A stretch of 64,000 bases of DNA from an uncultured virus (IMG/VR IMGVR_UViG_3300032323_003710) (IMGVR_UViG_3300032323_003710); one strand, 5' to 3'. Shown: positions 1-50,472, counted from the first letter of the stretch. The notes: generated from the letters alone by a model not told the origin. Numbers and translations: made by a program.

Positions 1-153
1 AAACCCTGTAGGTGTTCCATTGTAACCATCTGATACAATCATACCATTTTTAACTATTATAGCACCTACTTTCTTTCTTGTACAATGTGAAAGAGTTGCC
101 CATTCAGTTGCCATATTGAGATATACTCTATCATATCTATCTTGTTTATTCAT
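1..153 (-). CDS. dCMP deaminase (ComEB-like), N-terminal part; runs off window start
   Basis: Hand translation MNKQDRYDRVYLNMATEWATLSHCTRKKVGAIIVKNGMIVSDGYNGTPTGF; S-x-C..VGA..GYNG-P motif; not in ORF track. Confidence 0.9.
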   Translation of the reverse strand, partial: MNKQDRYDRVYLNMATEWATLSHCTRKKVGAIIVKNGMIVSDGYNGTPTGF

Positions 154-325
154 CTTTTAATATTTTATTTATTTTTTCCTTCCTCATTTCTGATTTTGTA
201 TTATTAAAATAATCATACCATTGTTTTGACACGGTTATATAATTAGCTGAACCTCTAACACTTCCTCTTGCAATTGTATTTGCAGCTTCATTTAGTTTAG
301 ATATTAATTCAGATTGTGTCATCAT
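146..325 (-). CDS. 59-aa protein: major-capsid (gp23)-like fragment with C-terminal RD-type tag
   Basis: Hand translation MMTQSELISKLNEAANTIARGSVRGSANYITVSKQWYDYFNNTKSEMRKEKINKILKDE; TAATG overlap with nusG stop, overlaps dCMP deaminase start; below ORF-track cutoff. Confidence 0.75.
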   Translation of the reverse strand: MMTQSELISKLNEAANTIARGSVRGSANYITVSKQWYDYFNNTKSEMRKEKINKILKDE

Positions 326-879
326 TATGAATATTTTTTATCAATTTGATGCATTTCTAAAGTAAGTGGAGTTTTTCTACCAAAGATAGAAACTGCTAAA
401 ACTACTTTTTGATCTTCAATTTTATCAATAGTTGCTTTCATTGTTGCAAATGGTCCTTCATTGATTGTAACTTCTTCACCAACTGTAAAAATATTATCAA
501 TTTTCTTATTCATTGATTCAGTTTGTTTACCAATCATTTTGTTTACTTCTGCTTCTGTTAATGATTGAATATCACCATTTCTTTCTGCCAAGAATCCTGT
601 TGCACCTTTAACTCCTTTAAGAAAGTATTTTAACTCACCAAGTGAATTAGTTTCCATAAAGATATACCCTGGAAACATAATAGTTTCTTTCTCTACTTTC
701 TTATTGTTTTTTAAGTAAATTGATTTTTCAAGTGGTACAAGAACTTGTCCTATCTTACCAGTAAGATTTCCTGTTTCTCCTTCTTTATTTATTTTTTCTG
801 CAACTGATTTTTCACGGTTTCCTTGTGTTCTCACAACATACCATTTCATGTCTGTTTTGTTTATAACTTCTGTACTCAT
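325..879 (-). CDS. nusG: Transcription termination/antitermination factor NusG
   Basis: WYVVRT..G.E NGN domain, FPGYIF, KOW motif GEEVTINEGPF, SIFGRKTPL. Confidence 0.93.
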   Translation of the reverse strand: MSTEVINKTDMKWYVVRTQGNREKSVAEKINKEGETGNLTGKIGQVLVPLEKSIYLKNNKKVEKETIMFPGYIFMETNSLGELKYFLKGVKGATGFLAERNGDIQSLTEAEVNKMIGKQTESMNKKIDNIFTVGEEVTINEGPFATMKATIDKIEDQKVVLAVSIFGRKTPLTLEMHQIDKKYS

Positions 880-882
880 AAT

Positions 883-1278
883 TTATATTTGTTTTTCTAA
901 TTTTTTTATATAATCAAGTTCATCTTTAATGAACTCTGGATGTTTATCTATTAGATAATTAATATCATCAGGTTTAACCTTTAGTTTAATAGTTAACATC
1001 TTAAATTCTTTTTCTGTAATTTTGGGTTTATCTACTTTTTCACTTTTAGACCAGAACCATTTTGGAAATGGTTGTGTAAGCATAAAGTTGTACCACAAAT
1101 CCATAACAAGTACTTTATCAATTCCTTTTATGTTCATAAGGGCTGCTTGTTCAATATATTTCTTAGAAAAATAACGATTGAATATAAAGGAAAACTTCTC
1201 TTTATCATCACTCGTTATCTTAACCCAGTCTCTTTTATTCTTTAACATTGCATTAAAGACATCAATTAATTCTGCCAT
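883..1278 (-). CDS. Probable clamp-loader small subunit (T4 gp62-like)
   Basis: Size and pattern FIFNRYFS..A..MN...DK...D.W.N...KWF resemble gp62 family; in a replication operon. Confidence 0.5.
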   Translation of the reverse strand: MAELIDVFNAMLKNKRDWVKITSDDKEKFSFIFNRYFSKKYIEQAALMNIKGIDKVLVMDLWYNFMLTQPFPKWFWSKSEKVDKPKITEKEFKMLTIKLKVKPDDINYLIDKHPEFIKDELDYIKKLEKQI

Positions 1279-1677
1279 TTATAGTATAATTTTATCTATT
1301 TGTTTATCTCTAAATTCTATTGGATCATAATACTTCATATATTCTAATCCTAATACTTCTATTAATTCATCAGTAGAAAGTTCATAAGAAAATGAAGAAT
1401 TAACAGGCACATATCTACCATTAGCTAATTCATACTCTTCAACACCAGTGAAGACATTAAAAACATTTCTAACAATACCTACTCTTTTTGAGTTATCTAC
1501 ATTATCTCTTATTTTAGATAATTTATCAATAAACTCATCATTATTTACTTCTAAAGATGACTGCCATTCACAATAATTACAGATATGTTCAAATAGAACT
1601 TTATTTTTTGTAGGATATCCTAATTGTTCAATTACAGGTTCCCATTTACGAATTATATTCTTTTCAATGTTAGTCAT
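1279..1677 (-). CDS. Hypothetical protein; N-terminus like gp23 major capsid N-terminal segment, C-terminal RD tag
   Basis: KWEPVIEQLGYP...EWQ; ends FRDKQIDKIIL. Confidence 0.65.
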   Translation of the reverse strand: MTNIEKNIIRKWEPVIEQLGYPTKNKVLFEHICNYCEWQSSLEVNNDEFIDKLSKIRDNVDNSKRVGIVRNVFNVFTGVEEYELANGRYVPVNSSFSYELSTDELIEVLGLEYMKYYDPIEFRDKQIDKIIL

Positions 1678-2192
1678 TATTCATTTATATTTTTCAATAA
1701 CTCATCTATATTGTTATCTCTCATTAATCCTGATTCCTTCATTACATCATTCCAAATATCATTGAAGTTTTCACTATTAATATCTTTTAATTTATTAGTA
1801 GCAAGAGGTAATATCTCATCATACATTTTAGGATCTAAATACTGAGCTCTAATGTTATAACCTTTATTTATTGAGAAACCTGTTTCTTTAAGAATTTCTA
1901 CTGAAAAGTAATCATCATCACTAACTTTAGTTAAACCTGAACTACTATTTCTTGATTTCTTAATACCTGATAAATTATCAGTACTTATTGAAAATCCACT
2001 ATCATTTATATTTATATTAATGTTATTTCTATAATTTAATAGATTTAACAACATTGTTTTTAACTTATCACTAACCTCTTCATCATAACCAGCCCAATCA
2101 GCAGTGTACATTTGAGATTTGATAGGTCTATCCATCTCTCTCATTTCCTCAACTACTAACTTCACTATCTTTTTTAATTTCTTATCTTTCAT
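1677..2192 (-). CDS. Hypothetical protein with C-terminal RD tag
   Basis: Translationally coupled ORF; ends MRDNNIDELLKNINE. Confidence 0.75.
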   Translation of the reverse strand: MKDKKLKKIVKLVVEEMREMDRPIKSQMYTADWAGYDEEVSDKLKTMLLNLLNYRNNINININDSGFSISTDNLSGIKKSRNSSSGLTKVSDDDYFSVEILKETGFSINKGYNIRAQYLDPKMYDEILPLATNKLKDINSENFNDIWNDVMKESGLMRDNNIDELLKNINE

Positions 2193-3160
2193 ATTCCTTC
2201 AAATACTTTTGTCATTCTACTTACAACTTCTTGAGGTAGATTGCTAATTCTTAAATCAATCAATCTAACATTCATTTCAATATTACCAACAATTGGTGAT
2301 ATTTGACTTTTACTTAGTTTCTTTTTCTCACAGATTAAATCTGCAATGTTTTCATGTAAATCTGGATCCAATAAATTAACTTCACCAAATTCTAATAAGT
2401 ACTCATCATATATTGTTTTTGCACCAGCTGCACCGATACCTCTTTTTTTACCATTTTTTGTAACACTCCAAACAGAATTAATGTTATCACTTGAATCACC
2501 TGATATAATCTTAATGATTAAAGATTCCATTGGGTCAATCTCATGAACTTCATATTTATTTATGAAGTTATCTAATAAACCAATAAACTCAACATTATCA
2601 TTTAGATTAAAAATATCATCATTTGGTAATTTTGATAGTTTGTTTAAGAAAACTTGATAGTTCTTTGGTAAGAACAATTTTTCTTTGTTATACATCTCAT
2701 TAGTCATCAAATTAATTGTAAGAGGGTCTAATGAATAGTTAACCATTTGTTTAATATCATAGTCATTTGAAACTATAATTACTGATCTTCCTTCACTATT
2801 TGCATTCTCAGTTAAATATGAAATCCAGTCATCACCTTCAATATGTGGTGCTTCTAATACTTTCATTGTTGATTTTACTTCTTCTTTGAACTCACCATAA
2901 GCAGTGTAAACAAAGTTCCAATCAATGTCAGTATCTTTCTTTCTTGTTCCTTTGTATTCTTCAATTAGTTTCTTTCTCCAAGATTTCTCTTTTGAATCAG
3001 ATACTAAATAAACATTTGCAAAAGGATACCATTTTCTATATCCTGTTATGTTATTCTCAAGTGCTTTATGTAGTCCACCAAATAACAGGTTGTGTTTGTG
3101 TAGTGTAAACACTAACTTAGATAGTATATAGTTACCATCAATTATTAAATCTACTCCCAT
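2189..3160 (-). CDS. rnh: RNase H / 5'-3' exonuclease (T4 RNase H, FEN-like)
   Basis: IIDGN, SWRK...YKGTRK, EGDDWI, SNDYD, GDSSDNI, GIG motifs. Confidence 0.9.
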   Translation of the reverse strand: MGVDLIIDGNYILSKLVFTLHKHNLLFGGLHKALENNITGYRKWYPFANVYLVSDSKEKSWRKKLIEEYKGTRKKDTDIDWNFVYTAYGEFKEEVKSTMKVLEAPHIEGDDWISYLTENANSEGRSVIIVSNDYDIKQMVNYSLDPLTINLMTNEMYNKEKLFLPKNYQVFLNKLSKLPNDDIFNLNDNVEFIGLLDNFINKYEVHEIDPMESLIIKIISGDSSDNINSVWSVTKNGKKRGIGAAGAKTIYDEYLLEFGEVNLLDPDLHENIADLICEKKKLSKSQISPIVGNIEMNVRLIDLRISNLPQEVVSRMTKVFEGI

Positions 3161-3180
3161 GTAGTTTTATCTTATTTTTT

Positions 3181-3209: not shown

Positions 3210-3617
3210 TTATTTTAGTATGTCATTAATCTTTTTATCTCTATCTAATATAGTTATTCTTTCTTCAATGAATTTATCCATTTCATAACCAAATGAAAAT
3301 TGTTGTTTCTTTAATTCTAACCAATAAGGTTTACCTAATACATTTAATGTTGCAATTGCCATACCTAATGTAGGATCTGGATATCCCTCAGATTCATATT
3401 CTTCTCCAAGAATTACATAAGTTGTCTTCTGTGATGTAATGGTTGCTCCTGTTCCCCAAGAACCATGTCCATTTCCATAAATTGCATTTACATTATTTCC
3501 TAATGTTATTGTACTATTTGCCCAGTTTCCTGTTGTTATATTAGCAGTTCCTGTTGTAATACTTGTACCTGTTAGTGAACCAGATGACATATTTAATGTC
3601 TTTGTTTTCTTTGCCAT
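3210..3617 (-). CDS. Hypothetical protein, T/G/S-rich N-terminus, C-terminal RD tag
   Basis: Ends LDRDKKINDILK. Confidence 0.75.
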   Translation of the reverse strand: MAKKTKTLNMSSGSLTGTSITTGTANITTGNWANSTITLGNNVNAIYGNGHGSWGTGATITSQKTTYVILGEEYESEGYPDPTLGMAIATLNVLGKPYWLELKKQQFSFGYEMDKFIEERITILDRDKKINDILK

Positions 3618-3632
3618 TTTTTAATCTTCTTT

Positions 3633-4157
3633 TTATATGATTCTGTTAATTTGTATATCTCTATACATTACAGAAAATTCTTCTCTTATATCTAACTCAC
3701 AATCATATATATGAGTGTTGCTATAGTAATCATACCAATTTCTATTAACAACTTTCTTTAATATACTATCATAGTTTTCTTTAAGTAAGTGAAAACACTT
3801 TTCTTTTTCCATCCAATGTGTGAAGTTTCTTATTAAATCAAATCCAATTTTATCAAAACCATAAAAGAATTGTGGTCTTGAATAGGCAAATAAGTAATGT
3901 GATATTACTAAGTTATCATCTATTTCTACTTTTGGATTTGAATACTCTGGTGTTGTGAAGTAAAATTCAACACCTAATTTCATTACTGCTTTAGTTAACT
4001 TTAATACCTGATTAGGTAATCTAACATCTAAGAATAGATAATAGATGTCATCTTCAATAAAACACATAGGTATATTTTGTAACTTTTTATACATTAAAAA
4101 GTTACCTTTTACTGACCAATTCCCAGTATTATCAAGTATTAAATTATCTAAGCCCAT
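3633..4157 (-). CDS. Hypothetical protein with C-terminal RD tag
   Basis: Ends YRDIQINRII. Confidence 0.75.
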   Translation of the reverse strand: MGLDNLILDNTGNWSVKGNFLMYKKLQNIPMCFIEDDIYYLFLDVRLPNQVLKLTKAVMKLGVEFYFTTPEYSNPKVEIDDNLVISHYLFAYSRPQFFYGFDKIGFDLIRNFTHWMEKEKCFHLLKENYDSILKKVVNRNWYDYYSNTHIYDCELDIREEFSVMYRDIQINRII

Positions 4158-4458: not shown

Positions 4459-4463
4459 ACTGG

Positions 4464-4491
4464 ATTATATAAATTATTGGAGTAATTGTTT
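4464..4491 (-). promoter_or_regulatory. Class B promoter candidate (AAAC-N18-TATAAT)
   Basis: Minus strand AAAC-AATTACTCCAATAATTTA-TATAAT. Confidence 0.55.
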
Positions 4492-6335
4492 TATTTTAAT
4501 AATTCTACTTTTCTCAAATCTGAGTTCTTACCAAACCAAGTTTCTAATGCACCACTTGATACATCATTTTTATTTATTAGTGTAAGTCTAGGACTATTAA
4601 TAATATCTTGGTACTCATCATCAACTAATGCTGCCAAACCTTTCTTATATTTAATCTCAAAGTTTTTTAAGTCATTTTGGTCAGCCCATTCATTGTATTC
4701 AGTTTGTGAATAGAAAAGTATTTTCTTTTTACCTTTTGCTCTTGGTACAGCAACCACAATAGGTGTCTCAACTTTGTATATCATTTTTCTTTCAAATATC
4801 TCTGGCCAATACTTAAAGAAGAAGTTAATTAATAAAGCAGAAATGGCATTACCATCAACATCAGCATCAGTATAAAAGAATATCTTACCATATCTTAAAT
4901 GTTTCAATTCTATTGGTTGTCCTAATTTTAATCCAATTGCCGCCATAAGATTAACAGCTTCTGTATTTTGAACTAATTTCTGATTAGTAATCTCAGATAC
5001 ATTTATAAACTTTCCTCTCAATGAGAAAGCTCCCATTGTATCTGCAGTTCTATATTTTCTAAATGCACCTGCTGCAGAATCTCCCTCAAATAATCCTAAT
5101 GAACATTTCCATCTGTCTTTACCTTTAGCATCAATAAGTTTCTCTACTTTAATCTTAGATAACTTCTTATTTAATTCTCTTTGTAGTTTATTGTCATCTG
5201 CATTTTTCTTTTGCTCTATCCAATCCAATATAGAGTTAACTATCTCTGATTTAAGAATAGATTGTACTAATTTAGTACTTACTTCAAATGTAGTTCCAAA
5301 CTCTTTAACCTCTGTAATTAATTTCTCTTTTGTTTGTGATGAAAATGATGGATTGATTATAGTTGAATCTAAAAACAAAGTCATATGATTTTTTAACTCT
5401 GTTGGTTTAATATCAACCTTATGTTTTTTTAAGAAGAACTCTCTTAGTTGCGCAACTATTTGTGACATAACATAATCAACATGTGTTCCACCATCATATG
5501 TTTCTGTTGAGTTAGCAAAACTAATTTGTTGGAATCCATTTTCTGAAATAGCAATTGCAATAGACCAACTTTTATTTTTATTACATTCAAAGAAGTAATC
5601 ATCTGTATAAAGTTTAATGTAATCTTCAAATGAATTTAGATTTATTAGTTTATCATTAAAGTATATTTTAAGACTTGGGTTACAAGCAGCTAAGTCATAT
5701 ATTCTTTTCTCAATCATTTTGTAATGATCTTCATCAATATTTTCTAAACCAAACTTTTCAAAGTCAGTAGCAAAAGTTATTTCAGTATGTTTCTTTGTCC
5801 CTTTAACTACTTTAGCTTCTGTTCTATCTCTCATATTATTTGTGAATGTTTGGTCAAATTGATTTTTACCATCACAAGTTGATATAGTGAATTTTTTAGA
5901 ATAGATATTTACTAATACTGAACCTACACCATTTGTTCCTGCCCAAGTTCTACTATCATCATCATCAAAGTTAGAACCTGCTTTAAGATTAGAGAATATC
6001 ATTTCAGGAATCCATTCATTATGTTCTTGGTGTTTGATTACTGGTATACCACCATTATCCCATACAGAGATAACATCATTTTTTATAGTAACTTTGATTG
6101 TGTTTAATTTTGATCCTTCTCTTTTACTCTCATCAACTGAGTTAGTAATAATTTCATCAAATATTTTAAGAAATCCAGGGTTGTAAGTAAGTTCCCTTTG
6201 TGTCATTTTCTCTTCTCCTAATACCCATTTAGTTGCTGTATGAGGTTTAATTGAACCAATATACATACCAGGTCTTAGTATAACATGCTCAATATCAGTT
6301 AATTTCTTATACTTATCTTCTATTTTTTTAGACAT
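4491..6335 (-). CDS. Type II DNA topoisomerase large subunit (T4 gp39+60-like, GHKL ATPase + TOPRIM)
   Basis: HVILRPGMYIGS, EIITNSVD, DNGGIP, GTNGVGS, EGDSA, LRGK, TDADVDG, YKKGLA. Confidence 0.95.
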   Translation of the reverse strand: MSKKIEDKYKKLTDIEHVILRPGMYIGSIKPHTATKWVLGEEKMTQRELTYNPGFLKIFDEIITNSVDESKREGSKLNTIKVTIKNDVISVWDNGGIPVIKHQEHNEWIPEMIFSNLKAGSNFDDDDSRTWAGTNGVGSVLVNIYSKKFTISTCDGKNQFDQTFTNNMRDRTEAKVVKGTKKHTEITFATDFEKFGLENIDEDHYKMIEKRIYDLAACNPSLKIYFNDKLINLNSFEDYIKLYTDDYFFECNKNKSWSIAIAISENGFQQISFANSTETYDGGTHVDYVMSQIVAQLREFFLKKHKVDIKPTELKNHMTLFLDSTIINPSFSSQTKEKLITEVKEFGTTFEVSTKLVQSILKSEIVNSILDWIEQKKNADDNKLQRELNKKLSKIKVEKLIDAKGKDRWKCSLGLFEGDSAAGAFRKYRTADTMGAFSLRGKFINVSEITNQKLVQNTEAVNLMAAIGLKLGQPIELKHLRYGKIFFYTDADVDGNAISALLINFFFKYWPEIFERKMIYKVETPIVVAVPRAKGKKKILFYSQTEYNEWADQNDLKNFEIKYKKGLAALVDDEYQDIINSPRLTLINKNDVSSGALETWFGKNSDLRKVELLK

Positions 6336-7320: not shown

Positions 7321-7875
7321 ATGAAACAGATTACAGAATTGTGGTGGAAAAAATGTTTAGATGATAAACAAAAATTAGAACATTGGTTAGTTGGATTATA
7401 TAATAATGAGAAAGATGCTGAAGAAAGATTTATAGACTTTGCAGAAACCTATTGTAAATCAGACATTCATGCTTATGTTATCTTTAGAAAAATTGCTGAA
7501 CAAGAAGCAAATCATGCAATTTTAGTAGAGAAGATATTAAAAGATAGAAATGTTGAACTATTTGAAAAATCAACTAAAGATGGTAGATACTGGAGAAATA
7601 CTTTACCTTGTATAGTTGATTGTTCAACTGCTGCAGCAATAGGTGCTTATGCAGAAGGCTTATCCTTATCAAGAATGAGAGTTATTATAGCTGATCCTAA
7701 TACTCCAGAAGATTTGGTTGAACTATTTAAAGTAATTGAACCAGAAGAAGCCTACCATGCCAAAACATTGGCAATGATTGCAACTAAACATGGTATGGAT
7801 AAGGTTAAAGATTGTCATGATAAAGGATTAGAAGAACTTGGATTAAAAATTAGAGATAAAAATGAAAAGAAGTAA
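7321..7875 (+). CDS. Ferritin-like di-iron protein
   Basis: Two ExxH motifs (EANH, EAYH) with upstream Glu helices. Confidence 0.75.
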   Translation: MKQITELWWKKCLDDKQKLEHWLVGLYNNEKDAEERFIDFAETYCKSDIHAYVIFRKIAEQEANHAILVEKILKDRNVELFEKSTKDGRYWRNTLPCIVDCSTAAAIGAYAEGLSLSRMRVIIADPNTPEDLVELFKVIEPEEAYHAKTLAMIATKHGMDKVKDCHDKGLEELGLKIRDKNEKK

Positions 7876-8230
7876 ATGGTTATTCAATACAACTCTTAAA
7901 GATTGTAAAACTAATAGTTGTGATACTAAATTAGGTATTGTTGGTGTGTTTGATACAGATAAATCACATTGGAAGTATTATGTAGTTTCTTACTACACAA
8001 ACTCTCTTGGTGATGTTAAAACATCTTCTGATTTATGTGGCTATTCTGGCTATGACTTGGATTTGAATGCAGTTCAAAAATATGGTAAAGAATACACTAC
8101 AAAAGAAGAAGGAATTGCATTCATTGAAGAATATAAAACTAAATGGGAATCAGGTTCAAACTCTACCTTAGAAGAAAAAAGAGACAAAAAATTAAGTCAA
8201 TTATTAGATAATGAAGATGAAAAAAGTTAA
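7862..8230 (+). CDS. Hypothetical protein with RD tag
   Basis: Ends EKRDKKLSQLLDNEDEKS. Confidence 0.75.
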   Translation: MKRSKWLFNTTLKDCKTNSCDTKLGIVGVFDTDKSHWKYYVVSYYTNSLGDVKTSSDLCGYSGYDLDLNAVQKYGKEYTTKEEGIAFIEEYKTKWESGSNSTLEEKRDKKLSQLLDNEDEKS

Positions 8231-9239: not shown

Positions 9240-9734
9240 ATGATTAAGACACAAGCAAAAAATTTAGTAAACTTCTCAATATTAATGCATAATTCCTTAG
9301 AAAATGGAATTATGGGTTATGATCCAAGTTATATAATGGAGAAATGGGATAAATACATTGGTGTAAAACCAAGTTCTGATATTACATTTAATAAAGAAGG
9401 TGTCATAGACCAATGGATTAAAAGATGGCATGTTAGTGATGAACAAGTAGATAATATGAAAAATATACTTGCATTTATTGTTAGAGTTAATCATAAACAT
9501 TTCTTTATAAGAGGATTAGAAGCTGATGAAAATGACCCAAGTAATCATATTAAACCTAATTCAGTTTGGTTTTTATCTGAGTTAGTTGAATTATTTGAAG
9601 ATGTAGTTGGACCTGCAGATGATATTAATACAGAGTTTTATAATCATTTACATCCAAATGTTGCAAAAGTAATTACAGAATGGGAAAACTCAACATTAGT
9701 TAGAAGAGATAACAATTTAACTTTACTATTATAA
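9240..9734 (+). CDS. Hypothetical protein with RD tag
   Basis: Ends VRRDNNLTLLL. Confidence 0.75.
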   Translation: MIKTQAKNLVNFSILMHNSLENGIMGYDPSYIMEKWDKYIGVKPSSDITFNKEGVIDQWIKRWHVSDEQVDNMKNILAFIVRVNHKHFFIRGLEADENDPSNHIKPNSVWFLSELVELFEDVVGPADDINTEFYNHLHPNVAKVITEWENSTLVRRDNNLTLLL

Positions 9735-9810: not shown

Positions 9811-10302
9811 TCAATTTACTCTGTCTTTTTCTCTAATACAAATAAAAGTGATTTCATCACTATAATTCTTTGGAAGGTGTGAACCTGGATTTCTTGCCTC
9901 ATCTTCTGTTTTCTTTTCAGAAATAACTACCTCTGGAAATTTAGATGTAAATTCTTCAATTAATTTATCAACACCTTGTCCAGTATATTTATTAAGTGAA
10001 ACTGCAATAAATGGACCATCCTTATGAAGTCTAGATTTAAAATTAACTCCAGGAAAACTATTAGCAATATATATTTGTATTCCATAATTATTTGTCTTCC
10101 AAAAATCACCTGCATCATCTTTTCCACCTATAGTATGCCACCTGTCAAAAGTGTCACTAGATCCCATTTCTTTTTTTAATTCAACTTCAATTTTTTTTTC
10201 TTTTAGAAAGGAATATAATTTATTTACAAAAGAATCTAACTCTAAAATGTCCTCATTTATCATAAAATTCTCAAACAACTTAACATATTTTAATTTTCTC
10301 AT
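9811..10302 (-). CDS. Hypothetical protein with N-terminal KYxKLFE tag
   Basis: MRKLKYVKLFENF; AATATATA at 10324-10331. Confidence 0.8.
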   Translation of the reverse strand: MRKLKYVKLFENFMINEDILELDSFVNKLYSFLKEKKIEVELKKEMGSSDTFDRWHTIGGKDDAGDFWKTNNYGIQIYIANSFPGVNFKSRLHKDGPFIAVSLNKYTGQGVDKLIEEFTSKFPEVVISEKKTEDEARNPGSHLPKNYSDEITFICIREKDRVN

Positions 10303-10358: not shown

Positions 10359-10712
10359 TTATTCATAATCTTCTTCTATATCAAGTTCTTTTTGAACTAC
10401 ATATATTGCAAAATCTTTTAGATTTCCATTTCTACAATATGAATCAAATCTATCTTCATCAATATTAATTACAAAGAATTCTTCCATTTCAGTATATTTA
10501 GTAGTAATTTCATCTTTACTATCAATTATTTCATAGAACTCTTTTTGTAATTCTGGATCAGCAGGTAACATTTTATCAATCTTATCATATGCCATTACAT
10601 AACAGTCTTCTATATCAGTTTCATCCATTTCAACATTATCATCAAAATGTGGATGCCACCAATTATCTGGTTTGGATTCCTCAGACTCATTAAATCTTTT
10701 TAAGTATTTCAT
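10359..10712 (-). CDS. Acidic hypothetical protein with N-terminal MKYLKRFNE tag
   Basis: Start moved to MKYLKRFNESE (10712). Confidence 0.75.
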   Translation of the reverse strand: MKYLKRFNESEESKPDNWWHPHFDDNVEMDETDIEDCYVMAYDKIDKMLPADPELQKEFYEIIDSKDEITTKYTEMEEFFVINIDEDRFDSYCRNGNLKDFAIYVVQKELDIEEDYE

Positions 10713-10714
10713 AA

Positions 10715-10945
10715 TTAAATACAAGTTATTTTTACACTATTGGTTCCCCAAGTATCTCCCATTTCTGCTTCATCAAGAAACTCTGCAAGGGTTTGTTCTG
10801 TATTATCATCTTCTTCACTAAGATCCCAAGTTCTTTCAATATCACTTTTTCCTAGTCTTGCTTTAGCACCTCTACCAGATAAGTCTTTTACCATGAACTC
10901 TTTTTCTTGTGATTCAGATTCATTAAATCTTCTTAAATGTTTCAT
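10715..10945 (-). CDS. Small protein with N-terminal MKHLRRFNE tag
   Basis: MKHLRRFNESE; AATATATA at 10970-10977. Confidence 0.75.
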   Translation of the reverse strand: MKHLRRFNESESQEKEFMVKDLSGRGAKARLGKSDIERTWDLSEEDDNTEQTLAEFLDEAEMGDTWGTNSVKITCI

Positions 10946-12272: not shown

Positions 12273-12383
12273 TTATTCTTTATCTTTTTTATTTTCTAAT
12301 GTTTTTAATATTCTTTCAATCTTTTTCTTTCTAAGATAAAATTTAGAAACATTAAAAATTCCTGGATAGTGTGGCAAAGGCAT
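12273..12383 (-). CDS. 36-aa peptide consisting largely of an RD-type tag
   Basis: Hand translation MPLPHYPGIFNVSKFYLRKKKIERILKTLENKKDKE; AATATATA at 12406-12413; abuts next gene. Confidence 0.5.
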   Translation of the reverse strand: MPLPHYPGIFNVSKFYLRKKKIERILKTLENKKDKE

Positions 12384-24254: not shown

Positions 24255-24255
24255 T

Positions 24256-26697: not shown

Positions 26698-26702
26698 GAA
26701 CT

Positions 26703-27545: not shown

Positions 27546-27560
27546 AAAACAACTATCTTT

Positions 27561-43868: not shown

Positions 43869-44879
43869 TTATGCTTCTTCTTCACCACCTAATAATTTAT
43901 CAACTTCTGGTAATTTATCTGTTTTTGTTTTAATAAAATCAACAAACTTGGCAACTCTTTTCATTTGTTCAGGATCTTTTTTAAGTTCTCCTAAATCAGT
44001 TTGTAGTTTTTTCTCATCTTCTCCTTCCGCAGCAACTTCTGTTTTACCTACTATCTCTGCAGTAGTCTTAACAATTTGTTTACCATCATTACCTGTAAAT
44101 GTAAATTTATCACCTTCAATTTTATCAACTTTTTTAACATTAACTATTTTCTTTGCTACTTCATCTGTAGTAGGTGCTTTCTTTTGCTCATCTGTTAAAG
44201 CATCCCAAGCAGTTTTTTGTTGACCCTTTCTTAAATAGATAAGTTCTTCACCTACTTTATAATCAGTTGCAGTAGATGCTGCAATTTGATTAGCTTTTCT
44301 ATACTCTTCTTCTGCTTTTTTGAATATTTCATTATTCATAATAGTTTTCTTAAAGTCATCAACAATTGTTTTAATTTCTGATATTGCAACAGCTTTTTTT
44401 GCTGCTAAGTCTGCAGCAGCAGCAAACTTTTTATCAAAGTCAGCTTTTATCTCACCTGCTTTCTTTTTCATCATTCCAAATGCAACACTTGCACCAATTA
44501 AAGCATCTTGAATCTTTCCTTCATTAATTGAATTTGACTCTTTAACTATTTTAACTTCTTTATCAAACTCTGCAATTTGGTCATCAATTTGTTTAACAAA
44601 ATCCAATCTCATATTAGTAAGTGCTTCTTCATCCTCTGCCTTATTAATTCCATCAGTTGCTCCTTTAAGTAAAGCATCCATCTTAGCAATCATTGTTTGT
44701 TTAACTTTTTCTCTATCCATACCTTTCTTAAAATCATCTTTCAATGTTTTGAATGGTGCTGCAATATTACCTAAGAAACTTTTTAATGCTCCTTTTGCAG
44801 CATTATAAAGTGCTCCTAAAAATTCTTCATTTACTGAATCTTCTTGTTTGAAAGATTCATATTTTTTTACATATCTCAT
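43869..44879 (-). CDS. Helical protein with N-terminal MRYVKKYE tag
   Basis: MRYVKKYESF...VNEE; AATATATA 44904-44911. Confidence 0.8.
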   Translation of the reverse strand: MRYVKKYESFKQEDSVNEEFLGALYNAAKGALKSFLGNIAAPFKTLKDDFKKGMDREKVKQTMIAKMDALLKGATDGINKAEDEEALTNMRLDFVKQIDDQIAEFDKEVKIVKESNSINEGKIQDALIGASVAFGMMKKKAGEIKADFDKKFAAAADLAAKKAVAISEIKTIVDDFKKTIMNNEIFKKAEEEYRKANQIAASTATDYKVGEELIYLRKGQQKTAWDALTDEQKKAPTTDEVAKKIVNVKKVDKIEGDKFTFTGNDGKQIVKTTAEIVGKTEVAAEGEDEKKLQTDLGELKKDPEQMKRVAKFVDFIKTKTDKLPEVDKLLGGEEEA

Positions 44880-44942: not shown

Positions 44943-45437
44943 ATGAATAACAATTACATAGAAATGGTTGCAGAATTCCACAAAACATTCCAAGCACCAA
45001 TATTACCAACACCACAAATACCATCTGCAGATAGATGTAAACTAAGAGTTTCCTTACTACAAGAAGAATTAAATGAATTACAAGAAGCTATTGATAACAA
45101 TGACTTAGTAGAGATTGCTGATGCACTTGCAGATTTACAATATGTTTTAAGTGGTGCTATATTAGAATTTGGTTTAGGAGAAAAGTTCAATGAACTATTC
45201 AATGAAGTACAAAGAAGTAATATGTCTAAGGCATGTGAAAATGAAGTTATTGCTCAAGAAACTATAGAACACTACAAACAAAAAGATGGTACTGAATCTG
45301 ATTACAAAGAAGTAAATGGTAAATACATTGTTTACAGAAATGAAGACAATAAAGTTTTGAAATCTGTAAATTATAGCCCTGCTAATCTACCAGGTATAAT
45401 TAAAGGTGTTGATACTTTTAATATGTATTTAGACTAA
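44943..45437 (+). CDS. MazG-like / PRA-PH nucleoside triphosphate pyrophosphohydrolase
   Basis: V.EFH..F, LLQEELNEL, EIADALADLQYV, EVQRSNMSK, KVLKS; class B motif 44900-44927. Confidence 0.9.
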   Translation: MNNNYIEMVAEFHKTFQAPILPTPQIPSADRCKLRVSLLQEELNELQEAIDNNDLVEIADALADLQYVLSGAILEFGLGEKFNELFNEVQRSNMSKACENEVIAQETIEHYKQKDGTESDYKEVNGKYIVYRNEDNKVLKSVNYSPANLPGIIKGVDTFNMYLD

Positions 45438-45760
45438 TGAATGATTATATTAAAGATAAACTCAGACTTAAATTAAATCTTCATGCTTCTTCTGGTAAAA
45501 AGAGAGAAGGTGTTATTGATGAGAAAGTTATTGAATCTCTTACTAAACAAGTTGATGGATTGGGAAAATATGAAATTACATATAAAGGTATTTTTCCAAC
45601 TGGGATTCATAAGTTAGATGATAACTATCAAGTTGAATATAAGAATGGTAAGTACTATCTCTCACTACATGGTGTAACTACTGACTTAAAAGCAAATGAG
45701 TTTATTGATTTTAATATAAAAGAATTTAGAAATATACAATTAAAAAAACTACTTTCTTAA
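45437..45760 (+). CDS. Hypothetical protein with RD tag
   Basis: Ends EFRNIQLKKLLS. Confidence 0.75.
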   Translation: MNDYIKDKLRLKLNLHASSGKKREGVIDEKVIESLTKQVDGLGKYEITYKGIFPTGIHKLDDNYQVEYKNGKYYLSLHGVTTDLKANEFIDFNIKEFRNIQLKKLLS

Positions 45761-45782: not shown

Positions 45783-46049
45783 ATGAAGACAAAAGATTTA
45801 GACAAGTTAACACAAGGAGATATAGTAGTTTTTATAAAACATATTAATGGTTGGGCTTTTAATAAGTATAAAATTGGAGACCAATATAAGTTTCATAGTT
45901 TTAACATTAATAAAAATATGCCTATGTCTTCAAATACTGTTTACTTAGAAAGTTTACAAGGTGAAGTAATAGCATTTACACCAAAGGTTGCATATAATAT
46001 AGAAACTCTACAGAAGTGGAGACAATTACAATTAGAAAAATTAGTATAA
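45783..46049 (+). CDS. Small SH3/KOW-like protein with RD tag
   Basis: QGDIVVF; ends KWRQLQLEKLV; TATATTTG 45771-45778. Confidence 0.7.
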   Translation: MKTKDLDKLTQGDIVVFIKHINGWAFNKYKIGDQYKFHSFNINKNMPMSSNTVYLESLQGEVIAFTPKVAYNIETLQKWRQLQLEKLV

Positions 46050-46393
46050 TGACTGATAAAGAAAAGAAGTTAAGACAACATAAAAAAGAACTAAAGAGTC
46101 TTAGAAATAAAATGGGTAAACATATTGTTTGGTTTGATGCACTTGCTTCAAATAGACAATATGATTTACTATTTCTATGGAAAAAAGAAAAATATAAAGT
46201 AAAGGATATTAAAGTACCAACCAAAGTAAAGTTTGAATATGGTAATAGATTCACATTACAAAAGACTTATACTAAATATCCTGCAAGTATTAAACATTTT
46301 TTAGAAGTTTATACTTTAGATAGTAGATTCCAACCAAGTAAAGCAAGAATAAGAGAAGCATCACTAAAAATATTATTAAATGAATTATCCTGA
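46049..46393 (+). CDS. Basic hypothetical protein with RD tag
   Basis: Start MTDKEKK (TAATG coupling); ends RIREASLKILLNELS. Confidence 0.7.
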   Translation: MTDKEKKLRQHKKELKSLRNKMGKHIVWFDALASNRQYDLLFLWKKEKYKVKDIKVPTKVKFEYGNRFTLQKTYTKYPASIKHFLEVYTLDSRFQPSKARIREASLKILLNELS

Positions 46394-46928
46394 ACATATT
46401 AGAGACATTAAACTTAATCTATTGATGTCTGAGAATACTATAACTATAGACCCAAGTAAAAGAAAAGGTAAACTTACATTTCTTAGACCTGGATATGGTT
46501 TAATAAAACAATTAATTAAAATGGGTGCTATTGTCACTGGTTCAAGAGCACTTAGATGTTATAACATAAATGGTAAACAACTATTTGATAGAAAACCAAG
46601 GGATTGGGATTTTCTTGTAACTGAAAAAATGGCAATGAAAATTTGTGATGAACATGGTGTTACTTACAAAGATGGTAGTATAATGGTTTTGAAACAAATG
46701 ATTCTATTCAGAGATAGTTGTTATGGAGATTCAAGATATTTTACAACAGATATTCAACTTATTGTTAAAGATGAACTACCTGAGTATAGAGAAGTTGATG
46801 GTGTCAGATTTTCTGAACTATCACATATCATAGATGAAAAATATAAACTTGTCAGTACTTATTGTAATTCTATGAATAAACATGATGAAGATTTAAGACA
46901 AATAATAGCAAGATTTAACAACTTATGA
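46380..46928 (+). CDS. Nucleotidyltransferase-like protein with N-terminal RD tag
   Basis: VTGSRAL...RKPRDWDF (GS..DxD); starts HIRDIKLNLLM. Confidence 0.7.
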   Translation: MNYPEHIRDIKLNLLMSENTITIDPSKRKGKLTFLRPGYGLIKQLIKMGAIVTGSRALRCYNINGKQLFDRKPRDWDFLVTEKMAMKICDEHGVTYKDGSIMVLKQMILFRDSCYGDSRYFTTDIQLIVKDELPEYREVDGVRFSELSHIIDEKYKLVSTYCNSMNKHDEDLRQIIARFNNL

Positions 46929-47482: not shown

Positions 47483-47720
47483 AACTGAAATACCAAGAGG
47501 TAAATATGGTGAGTTCTCTAAAATTAGAGAAGAGTTTTTAGAAGCACAAGATGCTTTAGAACAAGATAATAAAATAATGTTGATGGTTGAACTATCAGAC
47601 TTGATTGGTTCAATTGAAGCTTATTGTAAACAACATCACAATATTACTTTAGATGATTTGATTACAATGAAAGAAGCAACTAAAAGAGCGTTCACTGATG
47701 GTACAAGAGAACCAAGGTAA
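47469..47720 (+). CDS. Small MazG-like protein
   Basis: SKIREEFLEAQDA...VELSDLIG. Confidence 0.7.
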   Translation: MGYHKTEIPRGKYGEFSKIREEFLEAQDALEQDNKIMLMVELSDLIGSIEAYCKQHHNITLDDLITMKEATKRAFTDGTREPR

Positions 47721-47940
47721 AACTTACTATGAAGTAGGTGATAGAGTTCTTAGAGGTAATCATAATTGTATTATAATAGTAATACATAGACCTAATAATA
47801 GATATTATATTAGATACTTAGATAATTTTAATACTCAAGGAACTAATGTTGAAAGTTGGGTTGCTTACTCAGATATTGAGTTAGATAGAGAATATTATAG
47901 AGATTTAAAAATAGAACAGATATTAAATGGAGATAGGTGA
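47698..47940 (+). CDS. Small SH3/KOW-like protein with RD tag
   Basis: YEVGDRV; YYRDLKIEQILN. Confidence 0.75.
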   Translation: MVQENQGKTYYEVGDRVLRGNHNCIIIVIHRPNNRYYIRYLDNFNTQGTNVESWVAYSDIELDREYYRDLKIEQILNGDR

Positions 47941-48160
47941 TATAGTAATACTTAAAGAGGATAGTTTTCTAAAAGAATATTTTCCTGGTTATTGTGAAAT
48001 AATTGAGACTATAACTATTATGAGAGAACTTAGGTATAGTATTAGGACTATTGACTTTATTAATGGCTCACAAAATATAACCTTGTCATATGAAAATGAT
48101 ATTATACCAATAGTCAGAATTAGAAATGAGAAATTAAATAAATTATTAGATGAAATATAA
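47927..48160 (+). CDS. Small SH3/KOW-like protein with RD tag
   Basis: MEIGDIVILK; RIRNEKLNKLLD. Confidence 0.75.
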   Translation: MEIGDIVILKEDSFLKEYFPGYCEIIETITIMRELRYSIRTIDFINGSQNITLSYENDIIPIVRIRNEKLNKLLDEI

Positions 48161-48482
48161 AATTAGATTTGAGATTAAGTATGGTGATTTAAGTAAAGAT
48201 GAAATCAGAGACCATAAATTAGGATTATTGGATCAAGATATAACTACAGAAATTGAATCTGAATATCCCTTGAATATACCTTCTAAAGATGAAATGGTTG
48301 AGTTAGGTGAAGAATTATACTCAATCAATATGATTTATCATAAATTAGAAAAAGATTGCTATACAAGTGTTATTTCAGTTACTAGTAATAAGATTAAAAA
48401 TATGTTAGATGCTAAGCAAAGAAAGCTTGACACAGAAAGAGAAATAGAAAGAATGAGTTCTATGTTTTCATTTAAAGTATAA
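48150..48482 (+). CDS. Hypothetical protein with N-proximal RD motif
   Basis: EIRDHKLGLL. Confidence 0.7.
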   Translation: MKYKIRFEIKYGDLSKDEIRDHKLGLLDQDITTEIESEYPLNIPSKDEMVELGEELYSINMIYHKLEKDCYTSVISVTSNKIKNMLDAKQRKLDTEREIERMSSMFSFKV

Positions 48483-48799
48483 TGACTATAGAAAAACTAA
48501 ATGAACTTATAGATAAAAGTAAGATGTTTGGTAGAGATTTTAGAATTAAAACTTTTGAAACTTTCCCAAATGTACATCCAACATTAAAAAATCCACTCAA
48601 TCATCTTAATGATATTAGAGTAGAATTTTCTATGTATGATGTCAATATATTTGGGGTTCATATGTTAAGTGAAATGACTATAAAAGACTTCTTTGATGAA
48701 GTTGATAAGATTGCAAATGAAAGAAATGAAACATATAAAAATTGGAAACAAACAGAATTAAGAGAATATAACATAGATAAAATATTAGAAAATGAGTAA
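48482..48799 (+). CDS. Hypothetical protein with RD tag
   Basis: Ends ELREYNIDKILENE. Confidence 0.75.
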   Translation: MTIEKLNELIDKSKMFGRDFRIKTFETFPNVHPTLKNPLNHLNDIRVEFSMYDVNIFGVHMLSEMTIKDFFDEVDKIANERNETYKNWKQTELREYNIDKILENE

Positions 48800-49778
48800 A
48801 TATATAAATGATTTCATTAAAGACTTATCAATTAAAGATAAGAAAACACTTTCACAAAAAACACTTAAATTAGTAGAAGAAGTAGGTGAACTCTCAAGAT
48901 TTATTCTACCATTTGATTCAGCACCAGGAACAAACCATAGATTTTCAGATAGAGAAAAAATACTTGAAGAAGTAGTAGATGTTTATTTATCAAACATTTC
49001 TATTGCACATTCATTAGGTTTCACTGATGAAGAGTTTAATGAAATGTTAAACAAGAAAACTGATAAGTGGGCTAAGCTTCAATTAAAAGAAGATGAAGTA
49101 ACTTTCCCTTTACCTTATGAGATACATGTTACTGTTGATACCTCAGAAAACTTCTTTGAATGTGATATAGATGGGTTTAAATCTAAATGTCAAGAAATTG
49201 ATGTTAAACCAATTGTTTTAGATTTAGAAATGAAAGAAGGAACTTTGAAGGATGTAATGACAAGTTCAAAGCACTTTGGAGACAATAGAACTGCATATGA
49301 AGAAGCAAATCGTATTGCTAATAAACTTACATCATTTGGTTACAAAGTTGTCAGAAACAAGATAGAAACAGTTCCTTGGCATCCTGCAGCACCTACTTTT
49401 AAAACAGGAGAACCAATTCCAAATGGATGTTACTTTGAAAGTCATATTGGTGTTGTTATTTCACCAGATGAAAAAGAAGCTCTACAAGAGTTTGTACAAG
49501 GATTAAATGATAGATGTACAGAAGCTGGTAGAATTGAGATAGGTGGTACTTGTAAATTATCACAGAACTTCTTTAAGAAATCTAAAGATGGTAGTAAGTT
49601 TGTTAATATGCTTACTTATAGAGATAATATGACTTGTAGAGAAGACTTTGAACATGGAGTTGAAGCAATTAAATGGTCATTAGATAAATGTGGATTTGAC
49701 TTTGAGAAAGTTGAAGTTGAATATGCACTTTATGATACCAATGTAAATCATGATTCAAAATGGATTCTTGGACTATAA
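48792..49778 (+). CDS. MazG-like domain fused to uncharacterised His/Glu-motif domain
   Basis: KLVEEVGEL...EEVVDV; then YEIHVTV, RNKIET, YFESHIG, EYALYDTN..HD..W. Confidence 0.75.
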   Translation: MSKYINDFIKDLSIKDKKTLSQKTLKLVEEVGELSRFILPFDSAPGTNHRFSDREKILEEVVDVYLSNISIAHSLGFTDEEFNEMLNKKTDKWAKLQLKEDEVTFPLPYEIHVTVDTSENFFECDIDGFKSKCQEIDVKPIVLDLEMKEGTLKDVMTSSKHFGDNRTAYEEANRIANKLTSFGYKVVRNKIETVPWHPAAPTFKTGEPIPNGCYFESHIGVVISPDEKEALQEFVQGLNDRCTEAGRIEIGGTCKLSQNFFKKSKDGSKFVNMLTYRDNMTCREDFEHGVEAIKWSLDKCGFDFEKVEVEYALYDTNVNHDSKWILGL

Positions 49779-50038
49779 AAAGTAATATAAAGGATGGTAA
49801 GGTTAAATTTAAAGTAGGTGATAAAGTAATTTGTTTTAGAAGAAAAACTAATGGTCATCCAAGAAAAATAAAGGATGATGTTGAATATACTATAAAGTCA
49901 ATAGTTAATGATGATTTGTTTATTGCAACACATTCATTAGATGGTATTGGATGGAATCAAGTTATAAAGGTTCATAAAACTTATATGATAAGTAAAGCAG
50001 ATTTAAGAGAAATTAAAATAAATGAGATATTAAGATGA
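49760..50038 (+). CDS. Small SH3/KOW-like protein with RD tag
   Basis: FKVGDKVIC; ends DLREIKINEILR. Confidence 0.75.
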   Translation: MDSWTIKSNIKDGKVKFKVGDKVICFRRKTNGHPRKIKDDVEYTIKSIVNDDLFIATHSLDGIGWNQVIKVHKTYMISKADLREIKINEILR

Positions 50039-50472
50039 TATACTATGATTCACATAAGAATAAATTTATACCTATAGATAAAAAAGATATAGAGATTAAG
50101 TTTATTACAAATAATAACATTACAACAAGACAACTAAGTAAAGAGTGTGAAATAGTTATAAGGTTTGATTATTCTGAATTAAAGTATTTCAAACAATGGT
50201 TTGATGATACACATGATAGTCAAAGGATGAGGTATGTTTCTGAATATAAAAGAGACATCTTTATATCAGATCCCGATTCTGTTATAGATACAAAGTTTTG
50301 TAATTGTTTTATATCAAGTATGGAATTATATGATTTTAGATCACCTTACAATAGTGTGGTTAATCAGTTTGAAGTTTTATTGAAATGTGATTATTATGAA
50401 AAAGGTGGTGTTTATCCAGAGTTAAAGGCAATATATAGAGATAAGAAGATAGACTTAATACTATCAAAATAA
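50035..50472 (+). CDS. Tail-tube (gp19)-like derivative with RD tag
   Basis: YFKQW...SEYKRDIFI...FEVLLKCDYYE then YRDKKIDLILSK. Confidence 0.65.
   Translation: MIYYDSHKNKFIPIDKKDIEIKFITNNNITTRQLSKECEIVIRFDYSELKYFKQWFDDTHDSQRMRYVSEYKRDIFISDPDSVIDTKFCNCFISSMELYDFRSPYNSVVNQFEVLLKCDYYEKGGVYPELKAIYRDKKIDLILSK

Follow-up and report, generated by a model that had tools for sequence, protein, structure and literature searches.

The window analysed here, the whole 64,000-nucleotide stretch of DNA from the uncultured virus IMGVR_UViG_3300032323_003710 (64 kb), raises the question why about a quarter of its genes end in the same nine-residue peptide, in the following called the tag. The window has a content of guanine plus cytosine (GC) of 27% and is almost entirely coding: 95 non-overlapping open reading frames (ORFs) with 20,175 residues, the gene set used for all window counts, make up 95% of the 64 kb. 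The pattern R-[D/N/E]-x-K-[I/L]-x-x-[I/L]-[L/I] is found at the ends of 24 of the 95 genes and in addition on one ORF of 36 amino acids (aa). We found that the tag is real, that it is located at the chain end, under selection as a peptide and restricted to one clade, and that its carriers are unrelated to each other. What it may dock to is weighed below, the tentative candidate being a phage-encoded DUF2201 protein together with a MoxR-type ATPase.

An earlier note on this DNA had listed 24 C-terminal instances of the tag and three internal or N-proximal ones (36591, 46380 and 48150). The three are present in the sequence, as are 24/24 of the C-terminal instances, including the tag listed at 46049 (REASLKILL), whose ORF spans 46016-46393. 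The carriers are given below; individual genes are referred to by their first coordinate (e.g. g3633).

146-325 (-): mini-protein of 59 aa, tag RKEKINKIL at 158-184; body similar to part of a T4-type major capsid protein
1279-1677 (-): ORF of 132 aa, tag RDKQIDKII at 1285-1311; tag present in 6/6 homologues of related loci
1677-2192 (-): ORF of 171 aa, tag RDNNIDELL at 1695-1721
3210-3617 (-): ORF of 135 aa, tag RDKKINDIL at 3216-3242; tag in 12/13 homologues
3633-4157 (-): ORF of 174 aa, tag RDIQINRII at 3636-3662, with a further tag-like copy, IREEFSVMY, ahead of it; 21/23 homologues tagged
7862-8230 (+): ORF of 122 aa, tag RDKKLSQLL at 8180-8206
9240-9734 (+): ORF of 164 aa, tag RDNNLTLLL at 9705-9731; 5/7 homologues tagged
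12273-12383 (-): ORF of 36 aa, tag RKKKIERIL at 12306-12332; a 50-aa homologue with the same tag is found in contig L231
13430-13759 (+): ORF of 109 aa, tag RDRKIAHIL at 13688-13714; first in a run of five consecutive tagged genes
13728-14504 (+): ORF of 258 aa, tag RTAQVNSIL at 14472-14498; tagged orthologues in G001, G004 and W01
14506-15012 (+): ORF of 168 aa, '...LGI' variant RNYKLEKLG-I at 14980-15006; tagged orthologues, 55-68% identical, in G001, G004 and W01
15069-15470 (+): ORF of 133 aa, tag RDKKIDIIN at 15435-15461
15509-17344 (+): protein of 611 aa, tag RDIKIDTIL at 17312-17338; sole tagged family in 5/5 tag-bearing genomes compared
24256-24732 (+): ORF of 158 aa, tag RDIKLKGLL at 24700-24726
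33709-34041 (+): ORF of 110 aa, tag RHFRINKIL at 34006-34032; tagged orthologues in G001, G004 and W01
36591-36938 (+): ORF of 115 aa, internal tag-like RDLILEELL at 36786-36812
39210-40085 (+): ORF of 291 aa, '...LGI' variant RNSILEALG-I at 40053-40079
45437-45760 (+): ORFan of 107 aa, tag RNIQLKKLL at 45728-45754
45783-46049 (+): ORFan of 88 aa, tag RQLQLEKLV at 46020-46046
46016-46393 (+): tagged ORF, tag REASLKILL at 46352-46378
46380-46928 (+): ORF of 182 aa, N-proximal tag-like RDIKLNLLM at 46401-46427
47698-47940 (+): ORF of 80 aa, tag RDLKIEQIL at 47899-47925
47927-48160 (+): ORFan of 77 aa, tag RNEKLNKLL at 48122-48148
48150-48482 (+): ORF of 110 aa, N-proximal tag-like RDHKLGLLD at 48207-48233
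48482-48799 (+): ORFan of 105 aa, tag REYNIDKIL at 48761-48787
49760-50038 (+): ORF of 92 aa, tag REIKINEIL at 50006-50032
50035-50472 (+): ORFan of 145 aa, tag RDKKIDLIL at 50437-50463

The 24 pattern matches also include one absent from the earlier list, RFSIIKNIV in gene 46925, a class-II aminoacyl-tRNA synthetase-like protein; this match is probably due to chance.

The logo of the 24 instances reads [hydrophobic]-R-D-x-K-[I/L]-[N/D/E/K]-x-[I/L]-L-[N/K/S]. For counting we distinguished between a strict pattern, R[DENK].[KQN][IL]..[IL][LI], and a loose one, R...[ILV]..[ILV][ILVGN]. The strict pattern occurs 16 times in the window proteins, and 16/16 of these matches lie no more than 15 aa from the C-terminus. 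The earlier note had suggested a comparison with composition-matched shuffles. In 2000 composition-preserving shuffles, with the last 26 aa of each protein scored, the strict pattern reached a mean of 0.02 proteins (maximum 1) against 16 observed, and the loose pattern a mean of 1.02 (maximum 5) against 24 observed. Outside of the C-terminal zone the loose pattern is at chance level (12 observed, 10.5 expected). Reversed window sequences gave no C-terminal match, and the N-terminal 26-aa zones of the window proteins contain no strict and one loose match. The hydrophobic positions of the tag are encoded by six codons (ATA, ATT, ATC, TTA, CTA and GTT). This agrees with the earlier observation that the DNA is not conserved; the synonymous variety therefore places the constraint on the peptide and rules out a signal at the DNA level.

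For the search in related phages a position matrix was built from the 24 window instances; at a threshold of 10, 0.16% of shuffled proteins score. The genomes and fragments compared are as follows:

Window, 64 kb: 24 of 95 proteins tagged
G001, 483 kb: 43 of 639 tagged
G004, 281 kb: 41 of 405 tagged
W01 (LR756502.1), 642 kb: 155 of 987 tagged
G005, 185 kb, 86% complete: 32 of 268 tagged
G012, 183 kb: 17 of 258 tagged
G002, 271 kb, complete: 0 of 328 tagged
G029, 367 kb, complete: 1 of 507 tagged
G030, 243 kb, complete, 26% GC: 1 of 293 tagged

Pooled, the six tag-bearing genomes and fragments have the tag on 312 of 2652 proteins, compared to 2 of 1128 in the three complete relatives. G030 is as AT-rich as the tag-bearing phages, yet has a single tagged protein; together with the shuffles this excludes AT-rich composition as the cause. 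The tag marks an entire clade of T4-like huge phages, whose hosts are probably Bacteroidota. A related but distinct tag, R-K-x-K-L-K-x-L-stop, was noticed in a more distant phage, the 48-kb IMG/VR contig L220 (GC 24%, Hsp70 61% identical), on at least 4 of 42 ORFs and in several weaker copies.

The pooled matches show the same preference for the chain end: 5.47 matches per 1000 positions are located in the last 30 aa, compared to 0.12 in the interiors and 0.21 in the first 30 aa. Among 381 matches, 241 have zero to three residues between the motif and the stop (none after the last Leu in 26, one in 135, two in 46, three in 34). Position 1, following the Arg, is D in 50%, N in 21%, E in 18% and Q in 3%; position 3 is K in 68%, position 7 is I, L or V throughout, and position 8 is L in 59%, G in 17%, I in 15% and F in 3%. 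The resulting consensus R-D-x-K-I-N-x-I-L is basic and amphipathic, and a frequent variant ends in R-D-x-K-L-x-x-L-G-I. From helical geometry alone, R0, I4, I7 and L8 fall on one face.

We then considered whether the tag is kept when carriers diverge. Homologues were counted in 50 related loci retrieved through the topoisomerase. The tag was found in 21/23 homologues of g3633, 12/13 of g3210, 6/6 of g1279, 5/7 of g9240, 4/5 each of g13728 and g14506, 3/5 of g15069 and 3/4 of g15509; for four untagged genes from the same loci, it was present in 0/25, 0/27, 0/27 and 0/55 homologues. Orthologues of 25–50% identity are still tagged. In the alignment of the g3633 family (20 sequences, 25–90% identity) the Arg of the tag is one of five invariant columns, and in an alignment of 36 g15509 homologues R602, D603, K605 and I606 are invariant. 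In the database, 93 of 120 g15509 homologues end in the tag: 70 score at least 10 on the matrix and 23 more carry the variant LRDDKI-x-x-VLS. The other 27 end differently, and some of them are longer forms with the motif at an internal position before an extra domain.

Structure models were available for both families. The AlphaFold2 model of g3633 has a predicted local distance difference test score (pLDDT) of 90.7 and places the tag and the upstream tag-like copy in one helix (residues 155–173); a Foldseek search of this model against the PDB gave no match at E≤0.001. For g15509 the model is poor overall (pLDDT 57.5) with a good C-terminal domain, the tag forming a terminal helix at 598–610 with a pLDDT of about 55; the ESM Atlas gave no usable match for this protein, and the best VIA Z of the model is 5.5. 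The g3633 family adjoins topoisomerase II and is kept across the clade.

The carriers themselves were described as otherwise unrelated, and this holds in the window. After removal of the tag, all-against-all BLASTP returned a single pair of tagged proteins with E<0.01, g146 and g3633, over 12 aa, so that paralogy of the carriers was rejected. None of the 24 window carriers reaches a Pfam cut-off except 46925 with its weak synthetase-like match, and a PHROG match was found for 2 of the 24. W01, G001 and G004 contain 123 tagged proteins with a length of 110 aa or more, five of which belong to Pfam families (riboflavin kinase, RNA ligase, BtpA and two DUF6011; E≤1e-4), and among 126 tagged proteins below 110 aa (matrix score of at least 8) 12 have any match at E≤0.01. 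The earlier statement that no recognised core enzyme carries the tag is therefore correct for the window, but not for its relatives, where riboflavin kinase, an RNA ligase and a BtpA-like protein are tagged. In W01 the median length is 111 aa for tagged proteins and 160 aa for the others, tagged genes are arranged in arrays (59 adjacent pairs compared to 24 expected), and 102 of 155 tagged proteins lack a homologue in eight other gene sets, compared to 355 of 832 untagged ones. Most carriers are fast-evolving, lineage-specific ORFans, and a few are enzymes.

Some of the carriers are small copies of segments of the major capsid protein encoded by the same phage. At least five such tagged mini-proteins match it with E-values of 1e-11 to 4e-6 or weaker:

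G001_144179 (144179-144931): capsid residues 451-546, E 1e-11
G001_198754 (198754-198957): capsid residues 512-555, BLASTP E 3e-7; Pfam Gp23 E 3.5e-8
W01_80294 (80294-80539): capsid residues 32-86, E 3e-7
W01_277261 (277261-277446): capsid residues 513-546, E 4e-6
W01_501868 (501868-502047): capsid residues 421-451, E 0.003

At least three different regions of the capsid protein are copied among the tagged small ORFs. In the window, g146 has a weak Pfam Gp23 match (E 0.0054), and its residues 3–32 align weakly by phmmer to residues 422–450 of the relatives' capsid protein. Small ORFs with capsid fragments often carry the variant R-[K/R]-x-x-I-x-x-I-F. A 49-aa carrier in W01 (523495-523644) matches part of DNA polymerase B (E 1e-4). 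The gp23 model detected further small ORFs, and tagged capsid-fragment ORFs are also located in G001 (335538-335759, 369410-369622 and 161223-161414) and W01 (466213-466425).

A second tag, M-[K/R]-[Y/H]-[L/I/V]-K-x-[F/Y]-[N/E]-[E/S], is located within the first 30 aa of 11 of the 95 window genes:

9811-10302 (-): N-tagged gene
10359-10724 (-): N-tagged gene
10715-10945 (-): N-tagged gene
24729-24983 (-): N-tagged gene
24983-25873 (-): N-tagged gene
25906-26697 (+): N-tagged gene
26703-27545 (+): N-tagged gene
34741-35277 (+): N-tagged gene
43869-44879 (-): N-tagged gene
50551-51030 (-): N-tagged gene
55868-56332 (-): N-tagged gene

It was counted in 34 of 987 proteins of W01, 15 of 639 of G001, 20 of 405 of G004, 3 of 268 of G005 and 22 of 258 of G012, as well as in 5 of 328 of G002, 0 of 507 of G029 and 1 of 293 of G030; outside the first 30 aa it occurs only three times in those proteins. 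The earlier note had claimed that the C-terminal tag never co-occurs with this N-terminal one (KYLKKFE), and across six genomes 0 of 105 N-tagged proteins are indeed C-tagged (hypergeometric P 1.5e-6). This lack of co-occurrence suggests that the two are probably different addresses. The form M-K-Y-L-K-K-F-N/E-E presumably recalls the capsid-targeting sequence of T4.

How, then, could the C-terminal tag act? The proposal of the earlier note, a modular terminal signal that would plug variable proteins into one putative common hub, is still the reading that fits best, as the tag is terminal, kept while the bodies diverge, confined to a clade and carried mostly by ORFans. Among the hubs named there, the pair of MoxR and a VWA protein has the best circumstantial support, the sliding clamp is disfavoured by the different tails of the phages' own gp55-like and polymerase proteins, and the Clp/Hsp100-like ATPase is also present in a tag-free genome. 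We tentatively propose, as a possibility short of an even chance, that the tag is a portable docking handle for one common, phage-encoded receptor, most likely the DUF2201 protein with MoxR. The two candidate genes of the window are:

18225-19772 (+): candidate receptor, DUF2201 protein (Pfam PF13203 and PF09967)
31613-32755 (+): candidate partner ATPase, MoxR-type AAA+ protein (weak Pfam matches to AAA_3/AAA_5; orthologue matches phrog_1297 'ATPase')

The product of 18225 contains a HEDFH metallopeptidase motif, two CxxCxGxG zinc-finger motifs and a VWA-like domain with the MIDAS residues DTSGS...TDG, and its HExxH and MIDAS motifs are intact. The two CxxCxGxG motifs, which are of the DnaJ type, are located in a long low-complexity linker rich in Gly, Gln and Glu between the HEDFH and VWA parts. 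PF13203 was detected in 19 of 40 records. DUF2201 is present in 10/10 tag-bearing records that are either whole or complete to at least 84% (G001, G003, G004, G005, G012, G036–G039 and W01) and in several tag-bearing fragments, absent from 4/4 complete tag-free genomes, and without a match in G006, which is 78% complete and has few tags. The protein is 70% identical in tag-bearing genomes. Twelve families separate five tag-bearing from three tag-free genomes; DUF2201 is the most conserved of them (62–80%), and g15509 is the sole tagged family among the twelve. In the window g15509 is a close upstream neighbor of DUF2201, which directly follows the five-gene tagged cluster, and in W01, G001 and G004 the gene is close, by coordinates, to the g15509 orthologue. 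MoxR of the window is 70–78% identical to its counterparts in G001, G004 and W01, those of W01 and G005 are 71% identical, and no match was found in G002, G029 and G030.

In known systems, as described in passages of PMC9976466 and PMC7159879, the target is taken by a VWA/MIDAS domain through an acidic residue or an extended peptide, and the MoxR protein supplies the force. Applied to the phage, the tag would be a short amphipathic helix appended to hundreds of unrelated, mostly small proteins with quick turnover; the variable body would do the work, or act as 'bait', with the tag as a constant handle. The phage itself would encode the receptor, whose VWA domain would capture the tag in the way other VWA/MIDAS domains capture a peptide or acidic residue, and the MoxR ATPase and the peptidase might then remodel or cut the carrier or the partner bound to it. 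A more specific version, which we regard as distinctly unlikely, is a programmable bait-plus-handle system in which each carrier binds a target and the tag passes this target to the MoxR-driven VWA-metallopeptidase for unfolding or cutting. Such targets could be host immune sensors of the capsid protein or the polymerase, and the mini-copies of capsid protein and polymerase would therefore find an explanation.

Several results weigh against the proposed docking to DUF2201 and MoxR. The phyletic match is one clade-level event common to 11 other families, and the phyletic support for DUF2201 is therefore weak. The tag-free fragment G022 has a different, split form of DUF2201, and MoxR was not found on the tag-bearing G012 contig, where the capsid gene is not found either. 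A host protein or a universal phage protein, invisible to the logic of presence and absence, could just as well be the receptor. Position 1 is acidic in only 68% of the tags and is Q, S or R in three members of the g3633 family, which would make the tag a rather poor fit to an obligatory MIDAS ligand. In addition, 60 of the 381 matches (16%) are internal, at least 40 residues from the end. Finally, the tag of g3633 lies within a long helix modelled with confidence (pLDDT about 91) and may therefore pack on its own protein. The first rank of DUF2201 and MoxR is thus circumstantial, based on clade-level co-occurrence, synteny and the known habit of VWA domains.

Other partners have been considered. 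A client or recruitment signal for the Hsp70 system, bringing Hsp70 to marginally stable ORFans or using it as a motor, is unlikely in our view. Hsp70s are classical hubs for short peptides, and the tag-bearing phages encode DnaK, GrpE and DnaJ. Hsp70 was found in 14 of 27 records (14/14 tag-bearing) and lies about 5 kb beyond the left edge of the window in a near-identical contig (L231, 9983-11875). An atypical protein of about 220 aa with the central J-domain signature KKLYRxIVKxTHPDK (HPD), which belongs to the twelve discriminating families, is present in 5/5 tag-bearing and 0/3 tag-free genomes and in 13 of 40 records. However, this J-protein is missing from the tag-bearing G038 (95% complete), the complete and Hsp70-encoding G029 and G030 have the tag on only 1/507 and 1/293 proteins, and the tag-bearing G005 (32/268, 86% complete) is without Hsp70 or GrpE, although host DnaK could serve there; with G005, G029 and G030, Hsp70 is disfavoured as the determinant of tag use. 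The substrate-binding region of the phage DnaK aligns closely to that of bacterial DnaK with no sign of a special pocket, and DnaK-binding peptides have a contiguous hydrophobic core, unlike the i, i+3, i+4 helical spacing and the charged core of the tag. The phage DnaK is about 65–70% identical to bacterial DnaK, and the Hsp70 set of W01, with the atypical J-domain protein, is located at 494282-496165, 483919-484428 and 541712-542383. An address that loads small proteins into the prohead or an ejected complex, similar to the T4 capsid-targeting sequence but C-terminal, is likewise improbable. These are T4-like phages with a gp23-type capsid protein, their carriers are diverse, small and fast-evolving, and capsid-fragment carriers could co-assemble with the shell; in T4, according to passages in PMC3012670, one conserved targeting sequence is found on highly diverse internal proteins that counter host defences. 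On the other hand, there would be no precedent for a single phage with 155 different cargo proteins, the tagged genes are clustered near genes for replication and nucleotide metabolism instead of a recognised structural module, and the N-terminal tag, never found together with the C-terminal one (0/105), is presumably closer to the T4 sequence.

We consider a degron or adaptor tail for a Clp- or Lon-type protease of host or phage, timing the removal of early proteins or delivering bound targets, quite improbable. The position at the chain end, the tight register and the early or accessory appearance of the carriers in arrays would suit it, and in relatives a 707-aa Clp/Hsp100-like ATPase (phrog_4871, E 3e-248) is encoded directly downstream of a conserved tagged gene. 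This ATPase fails to discriminate tag-bearing from tag-free genomes, being also present in the tag-free G002 (57% identity) and not found in the tag-bearing G005, and 16% of the tag matches are internal. Even less probable, in fact very unlikely, is a sliding-clamp-binding motif of the PIP-box or T4 type that tethers proteins to clamps on replicating phage DNA. The tag has the same hydrophobic spacing as such tails (h4, h7, h8), usually one residue before the stop, and the polymerase of tag-bearing phages ends in (K/R)RLSVVMDIFGG, i.e. R-x3-V-x2-I-F. A PIP box has the form Qxx[ILM]xx[FY][FY], whereas the tag has Q at position 1 in 3%, I, L or V at position 7 and F at position 8 in 3%, so that the spacing alone is common to both. 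In T4, passages of PMC2988020 describe the C-terminal tails of gp43, gp55 and gp33 as one interchangeable clamp-binding epitope; gp43 ends in ASLDFLFG and gp55 in PSLDFLYEAND (AF158101). T4-type epitopes are hydrophobic and acidic, in contrast to the basic, amphipathic tag. On the tag matrix the polymerase tail has a score of −9 to −4, and the gp55-like proteins of tag-bearing phages end in ...SNDGQGIHSL (GQGIHSL/GMGLHSL), similar to the tag-free G030 (...DGEGFHNF) and not to the tag; these differences disfavour the clamp epitope. A clamp gene was not recognised with the Pfam gp45 models PF09116 and PF02916, and T4 gp55 has a direct match only in G002. Highly improbable, finally, is the absence of any common partner, the tag being a preferred end of a domain, a helix that caps the terminus or associates with itself and has spread within this clade through the birth and duplication of genes, or exerting a ribosomal effect at termination. 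The helix of g3633 is confidently modelled as part of the fold, longer g15509 homologues keep the motif at a domain boundary, and the constant spacing between motif and stop codon would be compatible with an effect in the exit tunnel. A generic helix cap, though, is not expected to show an invariant Arg and the same nine-residue pattern on unrelated folds; the equally AT-rich G030 has the tag on 1/293 proteins, the bodies turn over while the tag stays, and tagged genes that end convergent units (7862, 9240, 24256 and 50035) show no link to a downstream gene.

The description of the tag as new agrees with full-text literature searches, which returned no proteome-wide C-terminal tag and no tagged capsid-fragment mini-proteins in phages, the two small-scale precedents coming from T4. 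The word 'DUF2201' was not found in the full-text literature either. As far as sequence comparison can tell, neither of the T4 precedents, the clamp tails and the capsid-targeting sequence, matches the tag. The clamp-binding epitope of gp43, gp55 and gp33 with its hub gp45 is similar in being located at the extreme C-terminus of unrelated proteins of a T4-type phage, and in being, according to the relevant parts of PMC2988020, interchangeable, placed on a variable linker and used to dock its carriers on one hub. In contrast to the three carriers in T4 we find dozens to 155 per genome, and the tag, which is basic and amphipathic, has an invariant Arg and is absent from the phages' own gp55-like and polymerase tails. 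The capsid-targeting sequence is also one conserved terminal tag on diverse, fast-changing small proteins of a T4-type phage, as excerpts of PMC3012670 have it; it is N-terminal, leads into the prohead and is removed by the prohead protease, whereas the tag is C-terminal, and the same genomes have the separate N-terminal tag that never accompanies it. With its MoxR ATPase and its VWA protein, in which MIDAS residues are present, the window resembles the MoxR/VWA pairs NorQ-NorD, CbbQ-CbbO, RavA-ViaA and midasin. Parts of PMC9976466 and PMC7159879 describe how in these pairs the VWA protein captures an acidic residue or peptide of the target, which the ATPase then remodels. Those pairs serve one or a few dedicated targets, in contrast to a tagged library whose binding we infer, and the VWA protein of the phage has a metallopeptidase motif and DnaJ-type zinc-finger motifs in addition. 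A variable target-binding body with a constant terminal handle for a machine that destroys or remodels is also known from adaptors of the SspB type, with their C-terminal ClpX-binding tail, and from poxviral ankyrin/PRANC adaptors, which are F-box-like and were named as an analogy in the earlier note. Compared to these the tag shows no similarity in sequence or domains, the handle is nine residues instead of a folded domain, and no ClpX or ubiquitin machinery is implicated.

If one handle links 7–25% of the proteins of a giant phage to one receptor, identification of this receptor would open a first functional access to hundreds of 'dark' ORFans at once and provide a sequence rule for spotting them in metagenomes. 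Bacterial sensing of the major capsid protein of phages is documented in passages of PMC13581612, and the capsid mini-copies among the carriers would tie the tag to the evasion of bacterial sensors of conserved core phage proteins. Once its partner is known, the tag would be a natural nine-residue docking peptide for tool building. Should the bait-plus-handle version be true, these phages would have their own equivalent of viral E3-ligase adaptors and of targeted protein degradation.

Besides the carriers and the candidate receptor, Pfam matches identify the following genes in the window:

325-879: NusG-like protein
2189-3160: 5'-3' exonuclease
4491-6335: T4-type topoisomerase II large subunit
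12473-13423: C5 methylase
19801-23604: collagen-like protein of 1267 aa
23697-29239 (+): RNA-repair set
59630-61542 (+): two-component pair of a PAS-PAS histidine kinase (492 aa) and a receiver-domain response regulator (143 aa)

The RNA-repair-like module at 23697-29239 comprises a HAD domain of 'Swiss Army Knife' RNA repair proteins, a head domain of CCA-adding/poly(A) polymerases and a 2H phosphoesterase; relatives have T4 Rnl1-type and other RNA ligases in addition. The only match in a nucleotide search among phages was 760 bp at 75% identity to LR756502.1, and the topoisomerase protein of L002, a 29.7-kb IMG/VR contig, is 99% identical to that of the window. The relatives encode a major capsid protein of the gp23 type. 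CHU_C type IX secretion signal domains are found in W01 (415688-418384, 514378-519390 and 597508-597858), in one case together with 13 SprB repeats and a PKD domain; these proteins point to a Bacteroidota host and to the use of its secretion signal by the phage. With the gp23-type capsid protein and the CHU_C/SprB proteins of its relatives, the source of the window is therefore a T4-like huge phage, probably of Bacteroidota.

The family-B DNA polymerase of the relatives is split into separate ORFs, located at 120483-121907 and 253853-255391 in W01 and at 76001-77311 and 171954-173492 in G001. One of the matches to the split polymerase crosses stop codons (one TAG and one TAA in W01, one TGA in G001), and the C-terminal piece ends in the T4-like tail RLSVVMDIFGG.

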